DNA from: Escherichia coli
GTDB lineage: Bacteria; Pseudomonadota; Gammaproteobacteria; Enterobacterales; Enterobacteriaceae
Strand: one strand, 5' to 3'
NCBI RefSeq assembly: GCF_003018115.1
Contig: NZ_CP027457.1
Length of the DNA: 64,000 bases
Below, piece after piece: positions 1 through 3,000 of this stretch. A program made the position numbers. Position 1 is the stretch's first letter; every line of letters starts with the position of its first letter.

Positions 1-3000
1 TAAAAATCGGGTATGTTTTAGCAGAGTATGCTGCTAAAGCACGGGTAGTCATGCATAAAACGAAATAAAGTGCTGAACAACAACATCACAACACACGTAA
101 TAACCAGAAGAATGGGGATTCTCAGGATGAACATAAAGGGTAAAGCGTTACTGGCAGGATGTATCGCGCTGGCATTCAGCAATATGGCTCTGGCAGAAGA
201 TATTAAAGTCGCGGTCGTGGGCGCAATGTCCGGTCCGGTTGCGCAGTACGGTGACCAGGAGTTTACCGGCGCAGAGCAGGCGGTTGCGGATATCAACGCT
301 AAAGGCGGCATTAAAGGCAACAAACTGCAAATCGTAAAATATGACGATGCCTGTGACCCGAAACAGGCGGTTGCGGTGGCGAACAAAGTCGTTAACGACG
401 GCATTAAATACGTGATTGGTCACCTCTGTTCTTCATCAACGCAGCCTGCGTCTGACATCTACGAAGACGAAGGCATTTTAATGATCACCCCAGCGGCAAC
501 CGCGCCGGAGCTGACCGCCCGTGGCTATCAGCTGATCCTGCGCACCACCGGCCTGGACTCCGACCAGGGGCCGACGGCGGCGAAATATATTCTTGAGAAA
601 GTGAAACCGCAGCGTATTGCTATCGTTCACGACAAACAGCAATACGGCGAAGGTCTGGCGCGAGCGGTGCAGGACGGCCTGAAGAAAGGCAATGCTAACG
701 TGGTGTTCTTTGATGGTATCACCGCCGGGGAAAAAGATTTCTCAACGCTGGTGGCGCGTCTGAAAAAAGAGAATATCGACTTCGTTTACTACGGCGGTTA
801 TCACCCGGAAATGGGGCAAATCCTGCGTCAGGCACGCGCGGCAGGGCTGAAAACTCAGTTTATGGGGCCGGAAGGTGTGGCTAACGTTTCGCTGTCTAAC
901 ATTGCGGGCGAATCAGCGGAAGGGCTGCTGGTGACCAAGCCGAAGAACTACGATCAGGTTCCGGCGAACAAACCCATTGTTGATGCGATCAAAGCGAAAA
1001 AACAGGACCCAAGCGGCGCATTCGTCTGGACCACCTACGCCGCGCTGCAATCTTTGCAGGCGGGCCTGAATCAGTCTGACGATCCGGCTGAAATCGCCAA
1101 ATACCTGAAAGCGAACTCGGTTGATACCGTGATGGGGCCGCTGACCTGGGATGAGAAAGGCGATCTGAAAGGCTTTGAGTTCGGCGTATTTGACTGGCAC
1201 GCCAACGGCACGGCAACCGATGCGAAGTAACAGATAGATAAATGAAAATGCCCGATGCGCTGAACTGCCATCGGGTTTTTTTGTGTTTGTCGAAATGGTT
1301 GTAGAAAGATTAAACAATCCAGGATATGCTTAATGTACGGTGACATACCGTACATATTATACGGAGCAGGAGAGTTCACATGTCTGCTGTTAAAAAGCAG
1401 CGTATCGATCTGCGTTTAACTGACGATGACAAAAGTATGATTGAGGAAGCGGCAGCGATATCTAATCAGTCCGTCAGCCAATTTATGTTGAACAGCGCTT
1501 CGCAGCGGGCTGCGGAAGTGATTGAACAGCATCGGCGGGTGATCCTCAATGAGGAATCCTGGACGCGGGTGATGGATGCGCTGAGTAATCCACCGTCACC
1601 TGGTGAAAAGCTAAAACGTGCGGCAAAACGTCTTCAGGGAATGTAATAATTTATGGATGATCTGACGATAGAGATTCTGACCGATGATGCAGATTATGAT
1701 CTACAGCGATTCGACTGCGGCGAGGAAGCGTTAAATCTCTTTCTGACGACACATCTGGTTCGTCAACATCGCAACAAAATTCTGCGAGCGTATATCCTTT
1801 GTCGCAACACTCCAGAACGTCAGGTGCTGGGATATTACACATTATCCGGCAGTTGTTTTGAACGAGCCGCATTGCCCTCGAAATCGAAACAGAAAAAAAT
1901 TCCCTACAAAAATATTCCCAGCGTTACTCTTGGGCGTCTGGCAATTGATCGTTCATTACAGGGGCAGGGATGGGGAGCAACACTGGTTGCTCATGCCATG
2001 AAAGTCGTCTGGTCAGCCTCTTTAGCGGTAGGTATTCACGGTCTTTTTGTCGAGGCGCTGAATGAAAAAGCCCATACGTTTTATAAATCGCTGGGCTTTA
2101 TCCCTTTAGTCGGGGAAAACGAAAATGCGTTATTTTTCCCAACCAAATCCATTGAACTGCTTTTTACACAGAGCGATTAACGCTTCTCCCAGCCGCCCTG
2201 CTGTGCCGTAAACCCCAGCGCCTGCATAAACGCCGTCATCACACCGCGATCTTCCACGCCTGCATCCGCCATCCACCAGCATGAAACGCCAGGATTGTTA
2301 CGCAAAACCTCTTCCAGCAGATATTGCCCCACACCGCGACGTCGAGTGACTTCCCGCACGCGCAGGGAATCCAGTGTTCCCTCTGTGCCGCTTAAGGTTA
2401 CCCGTACGGCAGCGAGCAGGCGCTCGTTAAAACGCGCGGCGTAGATACGGTGGTTATCGTCAACCTGTAACGAGGAAGGGGAATACTCCGGCCAGATCTT
2501 TTGCAGGTCAATCCGGTCCTGGTCGCTAAAGTTTTCTAATCGAATGATGGTCAGCTTCATGGGGAACCCGTGTAAATCACAAAAGTGGAACCAGTGTAGC
2601 GAAATAATTTAATCGGAGGCTTTCTCTTTTTTATTTCTTTTGGCAGGTGATTAATTTTTTAACAGCAATAATTACAAAGTTAAAACATTAGAGAATGAAA
2701 AATACCCAGCATAATCCCCTGAATGGTAGTGAATTATTCCGCCCTTTGTGCCGTTATTTTATGCTGACAAAGGCACTTTTTTCTGTTTATCTATCAATAA
2801 ATTCAGAATATTATCTGTTCTTAATCGACTGAAAAATAGGGACTTTAATCGCTATTATCACAAAATACTGCGCTAAACCCTTAATCAGACAGGCAAAAAC
2901 AGTGCAGTATAAAAAAAGAACAGTCTGATTTGTTAACACATAAAAACAAAGCAACACAACATCACGAATGGGGATTTTTGACTATGAAACGGAATGCGAA

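Follow-up and report, generated by a model that had tools for sequence, protein, structure and literature searches.

In K-12 MG1655 the gap between panZ(panM) and livJ spans 187 bp, holds no gene and is without ataRT. The question raised by this locus is what occupies the corresponding interval in the stretch of E. coli DNA analysed here (64 kb in all, referred to below as the window), and how the two open reading frames found there would be controlled. A first-pass annotation, read from the raw sequence alone, had proposed an AtaR/AtaT-like toxin-antitoxin (TA) module with a candidate autoregulatory operator, in an interval that it described as short and empty in K-12. That description is borne out by MG1655, and the genes, their family and the operator were all correctly recognised. 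On sequence grounds we are close to certain that the interval carries the chromosomal ataR-ataT type II TA operon, that the mechanism worked out for the O157 allele applies to this allele, and that positions 1333-1355 constitute its operator, predicted to overlap the point, preceded by a weak -10 element, at which transcription begins.

The two genes and their characterised counterpart

The first gene, ataR (1380..1646, plus strand), begins with ATG and encodes an 88-aa ribbon-helix-helix (RHH)/DUF1778 antitoxin of the TacA family, a transcriptional repressor; a Shine-Dalgarno sequence, AGGAG, can be read 7 nt before the start codon (1368..1372, plus strand). Its product is identical in all 88 of 88 residues to the antitoxin chain of PDB entries 6AJM (6AJM_C), 6GTO and 6GTS, matches the Pfam family TacA1 (PF08681, DUF1778) at 7.9e-26, and is recorded in RefSeq as WP_001277108.1, "antitoxin AtaR". 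A gap of 6 bp (TAATTT, 1647-1652) separates it from ataT (1653..2180, plus strand) in a bicistronic arrangement with the antitoxin first. The second gene, likewise opening with ATG, encodes a 175-aa GNAT toxin, an aminoacyl-tRNA N-alpha-acetyltransferase that is identical to 6GTS_A in 174 of 175 residues (E 8.7e-116) and is recorded in RefSeq as WP_001614005.1, "toxin acetyltransferase AtaT". Its Pfam matches are to GNAT domains (Acetyltransf_7, 4.1e-07; Acetyltransf_1, 1.8e-06; Acetyltransf_10, 8.4e-05). NCBIfam has models for neither AtaT nor AtaR, and a scan against it returned for the two proteins sub-threshold matches alone (MobA, RelB, RimI). The family assignment of the first-pass annotation holds in the Pfam searches, and its wording of a module merely "like" AtaR/AtaT proves too cautious given the PDB identities and the RefSeq names: judged by its sequence, the module is AtaR-AtaT itself and not a relative of it. 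No evidence against this assignment was found in the sequence, domain, locus and operator comparisons. The ataR-ataT system is not new: its structure has been solved and RefSeq carries its name. For this window it matters as annotation only, and makes no open question newly testable.

The operon was first characterised in E. coli O157:H7, whose AtaT differs by one residue from the one described here. That system (Jurenas et al. 2017, 2019; Yashiro et al. 2019, 2020; PDB 6AJM, 6AJN, 6GTO-6GTS, 7CHD) has the same genes, livJ-panM locus and promoter/operator DNA as the window; AtaR is 100% and AtaT 99.4% identical, with C65S the single difference, and the host strain here is not O157. The O157 AtaT belongs to the GNAT enzymes and is active when homodimeric (PMC8138530, PMC10135005, PMC7595197, PMC9177977); it moves an acetyl group from acetyl-CoA onto the alpha-amino group of aminoacyl-tRNA (PMC7595197, PMC9177977). 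The O157 AtaR has an N-terminal RHH domain and a disordered C-terminal tail, and sequesters AtaT, monomeric and inactive, within a heterohexamer of composition AtaT-AtaR4-AtaT; through its two RHH dimers this hexamer occupies both arms of the palindrome in the promoter, by which the operon is repressed, and a higher toxin:antitoxin ratio leads to a complex with lower affinity for DNA, whereupon the operon is de-repressed (PMC8138530, PMC10135005). Growth arrest by AtaT, its neutralisation by AtaR and the acetylation of aminoacyl-tRNA have all been published for the O157 allele (PMC7595197, PMC9177977). By extension, AtaR in this strain would hold AtaT inactive as AtaT-AtaR4-AtaT, the RHH dimers of the hexamer would sit on both arms of 1333-1355 and repress ataRT, and an excess of AtaT would favor a complex that binds DNA more weakly, with de-repression of ataRT as the expected outcome. 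The first-pass annotation had named Met-tRNAfMet as the AtaT target, and this was indeed the original in vitro result; the range reported in vivo is however broader, comprising the aminoacyl-tRNAs of Gly, Trp, Tyr and Phe as well as Met (PMC7595197), and the step blocked is taken to be elongation because peptidyl-tRNA hydrolase (Pth) relieves AtaT toxicity (PMC9177977). The same GNAT/DUF1778 type II TA superfamily includes TacA-TacT of Salmonella, ItaR-ItaT of E. coli HS and AtaT2 of O157:H7, which have aminoacyl-tRNA N-alpha-acetylation in common with AtaT. The toxins TacT, ItaT and AtaT2 are distant paralogues of AtaT (PDB 7F37, 6G96, 7AK7 and others, E 1e-21 to 1e-11), and their reported tRNA preferences are Gly for TacT3 and AtaT2 and Leu/Ile for ItaT (PMC9177977).

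Given that C65S distinguishes this AtaT both from 6GTS_A and from that of O157:H7 MB9-1, where it is again the sole difference, one might ask if the copy is attenuated or altered, the substitution weakening toxicity or shifting tRNA specificity such that the O157 system is no longer a proper guide. We regard this as very improbable. The change is conservative, and S65 is found as well in a diverged allele class of 96% identity (strain AR_0058), which argues that C65S is an established natural polymorphism and no sign of decay. Furthermore, all 18 residues that mutagenesis of the O157:H7 protein, of which 7CHD and 6GTP are structures, showed to matter for toxicity (PMC7595197) are kept, and residue 65 does not figure among those to which an important role in recognising acetyl-CoA, tRNA or the aminoacyl group is ascribed there. 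AtaT retains A26, L27, F30, H34, R37, R40, R71, S76-K82, Y85, R95, G108, L136 and Y144, among which G108 belongs to the acetyl-CoA site and Y144 is catalytic, the others including residues of the tRNA and aminoacyl pockets (PMC7595197). Both reading frames and the operator are intact in the window, whereas a visibly decayed version of the locus is known from another strain (L002, described below). The reading of an AtaR-AtaT pair that would function and be governed as in O157 is the one that we retain. As a minor point, the AtaT of 6AJM has N117 in the printed alignment, while K117 is present in 6GTS, in the window and in each of five further alleles sampled from genomes; strain or construct probably accounts for the difference, and the slightly lower score of 7CHD may reflect the same residue-117 difference as in 6AJM_A.

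The probable operator and a candidate promoter

Upstream of ataR lies a perfect palindrome, ATGTACGGT-GACAT-ACCGTACAT (1333..1355, unstranded), whose 9-bp arms (1333-1341 and 1347-1355) are 100% complementary, and which is the predicted binding site for the AtaR RHH domains of the AtaT-AtaR4-AtaT complex. The inverted repeat of the first-pass annotation is real, although the 8-bp arms that it placed at 1334-1354 fall short by one base on each side. No second copy of the palindrome exists in the 64-kb window at up to 3 mismatches (0.02 expected by chance), and the promoter/operator DNA agrees with that of O157:H7 at every base. In the other E. coli alleles the sole arm change is an A to G substitution in the right arm, at its innermost position, so that TGTACGG-N7-CCGTACA remains as an invariant core.

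A structural comparison is available with KacA-KacT of Klebsiella pneumoniae (PDB 5ZGN, 5XUN; PMC6698736), likewise a GNAT toxin with an RHH antitoxin in a T-A2-A2-T heterohexamer, whose identity with AtaRT is 67% for the toxin and 73% for the antitoxin (PMC6698736). The duplex co-crystallised with KacA4KacT2 is AAATGTACGGTTATTAACCGTACATGA (PMC6698736); its arms, ATGTACGGT and ACCGTACAT, and its 5-bp spacing are identical to those of 1333-1355. Residues R8, D10 and R12 of the KacA RHH strand contact the DNA, and mutation of R8 or R12 abolishes binding (PMC6698736). The corresponding strand of AtaR, KKQRIDLRLT, is the same as that of KacA, and residues 1-20 of the two antitoxins are almost identical, R8, D10 and R12 included. 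KacAT differs in its spacer (TATTA in place of GACAT), in species and in locus. The AtaRT heterohexamer has itself been reported to bind a palindromic sequence at the AtaRT operator (PMC6698736). These comparisons support the assignment of 1333-1355 as the ataRT operator, by sequence and by analogy, and hence also the candidate put forward in the first-pass annotation; with respect to the operator of Jurenas et al. 2019 (Nat Chem Biol 15:285), the call made here rests on the KacAT duplex and on the identity with O157:H7.

A candidate -10 hexamer, TATGCT (1325..1330, plus strand), can be read immediately upstream and matches the consensus at 4 of 6 positions; a possible -35 element, TAGAAA (1302-1307, plus strand), lies further upstream, with a 17-nt spacer between the two. 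The hexamer noted in the first-pass annotation is thus present, but it falls below the threshold of a consensus scan: a search for sigma-70 promoters and terminators across 1200-2700 gave nothing at threshold. TATGCT is invariant in 5 aligned alleles, the divergent variant locus included. We infer that transcription starts within the palindrome's left arm, such that the operator would overlap the start downstream of the weak -10 TATGCT, and this is in line with the kacAT palindrome, which is described as "spanning the transcription start site" (PMC6698736).

It could be argued that the palindrome acts mainly as RNA, that is, as a hairpin in the 5'-UTR that affects the stability or translation of ataR mRNA, and not as a protein-binding operator. 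A transcript begun upstream of about 1333 would form a 10-bp hairpin, and for the 61 nt of 1325-1385 the total folding energy is -15.4 kcal/mol (z = -2.0); such folding is however a property of any perfect palindrome, and with the predicted -10 the start falls within the left arm, so that the stem would be cut short. Nor does the variation among alleles look like that of a conserved stem, for the A to G change at the innermost pair is one-sided, yields a G-U wobble and comes with no compensating change. The KacAT palindrome was co-crystallised with its protein complex, and its binding is lost upon mutation of R8 or R12 (PMC6698736). Last, distant homologues keep the arm sequence itself, beyond mere pairing, which points to sequence-specific recognition by protein. 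We consider an RNA role as the main function to be extremely remote in likelihood, and a DNA operator for AtaR to be by far the likelier description of 1333-1355. Just 3' of the palindrome lies TATACGG (1358-1364), which resembles a third operator half-site (TGTACGG) and abuts the Shine-Dalgarno region; it is kept in four aligned ataRT alleles and two further alleles, and not in the divergent L002 locus.

Recurrence of the palindrome in other genomes

The 18 specified bases of the palindrome were searched for in 100,044 species-representative genomes (298 Gb), in a scan for exact matches as distinct from a systematic survey. It returned 18 loci (L007-L024), where chance would give about 4 (298e9/4^18). 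At 14 of the 18 an RHH antitoxin gene follows the palindrome at a distance of 11-35 bp, and all 14 antitoxins keep the motif R-x-[D/E]-x-R; the 4 palindromes without such a neighbor equal the chance expectation. At 12 of the 18 the gene at this 11-35 bp distance encodes an AtaR homologue (30-40% identity), followed in eleven cases by an AtaT homologue, the contig of the twelfth ending first. The modules that combine the palindrome with DUF1778 and GNAT genes occur in Coriobacteriia, Bacteroidota, and Alpha- and Gammaproteobacteria. That 14 of 18 palindromes lie beside RHH antitoxins supports a sequence-specific pairing of RHH domain and operator and, by extension, the assignment of the ataRT operator.

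The toxin partners are GNAT proteins except at two loci, in an Azoarcus MAG (L023, 2296-2318) and in Rhodanobacter glycinis (L024, 689-711), where the palindrome precedes an 82-aa RHH antitoxin with the strand RLDLRL, paired with a 134-aa toxin that is PIN-like (VapC-like) as called by eye. This suggests a shuffling of the DNA-binding module, together with its operator, between toxin families. It is tempting to go further and to regard the R-x-D/E-x-R strand and ATGTACGGT-N5-ACCGTACAT as a regulatory cassette, preserved base-for-base across distant phyla and associated also with PIN-type toxins, through which modules of the family could cross-regulate one another where they co-occur; we offer this tentatively, as a possibility that we would sooner doubt than assert. 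In the searchable literature, which does not take in key primary papers, we found no statement of a cross-phylum conservation of the operator, and it may be known to specialists. The exact operator string had no match in a full-text literature search, and queries that combined DUF1778/TacA with operator or palindrome, or TGTACGGT with antitoxin, returned the KacAT paper as the one relevant item; PMC9431474 contains nothing on operators. An operator that recurs in several phyla, and with PIN toxins as well, could be of interest to work on TA cross-talk and on antitoxin evolution, for which a systematic survey is needed first.

The livJ-panM segment and its surroundings

The intergenic segment that carries ataRT (1231..2176, unstranded) was delimited by pairwise blastn against MG1655. 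Upstream of it lies livJ (127..1230), and livK is on the downstream side, both as in RefSeq records with identical DNA; panM follows on the minus strand (2177..2560), identified by its reading frame and by the NCBIfam PanM equivalog NF033213 (190.5 bits, cutoff 68). The ataT and panM frames are convergent and have 4 bp in common (2177-2180), stops included; the two reading frames, the 6-bp gap and the 4-bp overlap are all present as the first-pass annotation had described them.

Homology with MG1655 stops at the livJ stop (1230) and restarts at 2174, and pairwise blastn detects no homology between the ataRT segment and the 187-bp spacer of that strain, from the livJ stop to 3 nt past the panM stop. 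Since there is no such homology, the whole spacer has been replaced, not interrupted. A simple insertion into a K-12-like spacer is ruled out, given that the entire intergenic region differs, with zero spacer sequence in common. Relative to K-12, one breakpoint falls precisely on the livJ stop and the other precisely 3 nt past that of panM, and the K-12 spacer (4369-4555 of the K-12 locus, L003) contains a REP-like AGCGCATCAGGCA motif. The GC content of the segment (0.43-0.49) is lower than that of its flanks (0.54-0.56), as expected for an accessory islet.

Of 5426 complete E. coli genomes, 1624 (about 30%) carry the segment 1231-2180 by megablast, each as one chromosomal copy, and every ataRT copy examined is placed at livJ-panM. 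The livJ-panM gap here is filled by a well-studied accessory TA module that K-12 does not possess. Its DNA is 100% identical to that of strain F9792 and 99.7% identical to that of O157:H7 strains. In O157:H7 and numerous further strains RefSeq places ataR and ataT within the livJ-panM interval; among the matches listed it names ataR, ataT and panM, with panM lying under the match in every one. A plasmid search with the livJ end and the promoter/operator stretch (1100-1400) disclosed no true plasmid copy, the sole matches being to three chromosome-sized records, and to livJ alone.

A divergent occupant of the same livJ-panM locus is found in E. coli UID2309220033 (L002, 2430-3195), where a TacA-family antitoxin is 66% identical to AtaR. 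Its strand reads QHIALSL, equivalent to R8H, D10A and R12S, the left arm of the palindrome is degraded and the toxin is a 3' pseudogene fragment; about 125 bp of extra DNA with a G-rich repeat lie upstream. This locus looks like a decaying relative of ataRT.

Directly 3' of the livJ stop is a hairpin, AAAATGCCCGATG-N11-CATCGGGTTTTTT (1245-1281), conserved in all aligned alleles and probably the intrinsic terminator of livJ; its 11-nt loop is the reason that the terminator scan passed over it. A search of the whole window against Rfam placed no RNA family in or near the ataRT module. The only family at gathering score within the 64 kb is RyhB, whose sRNA gene lies at 18778-18842 on the plus strand and matches RF00057 over its full length (83.1 bits).
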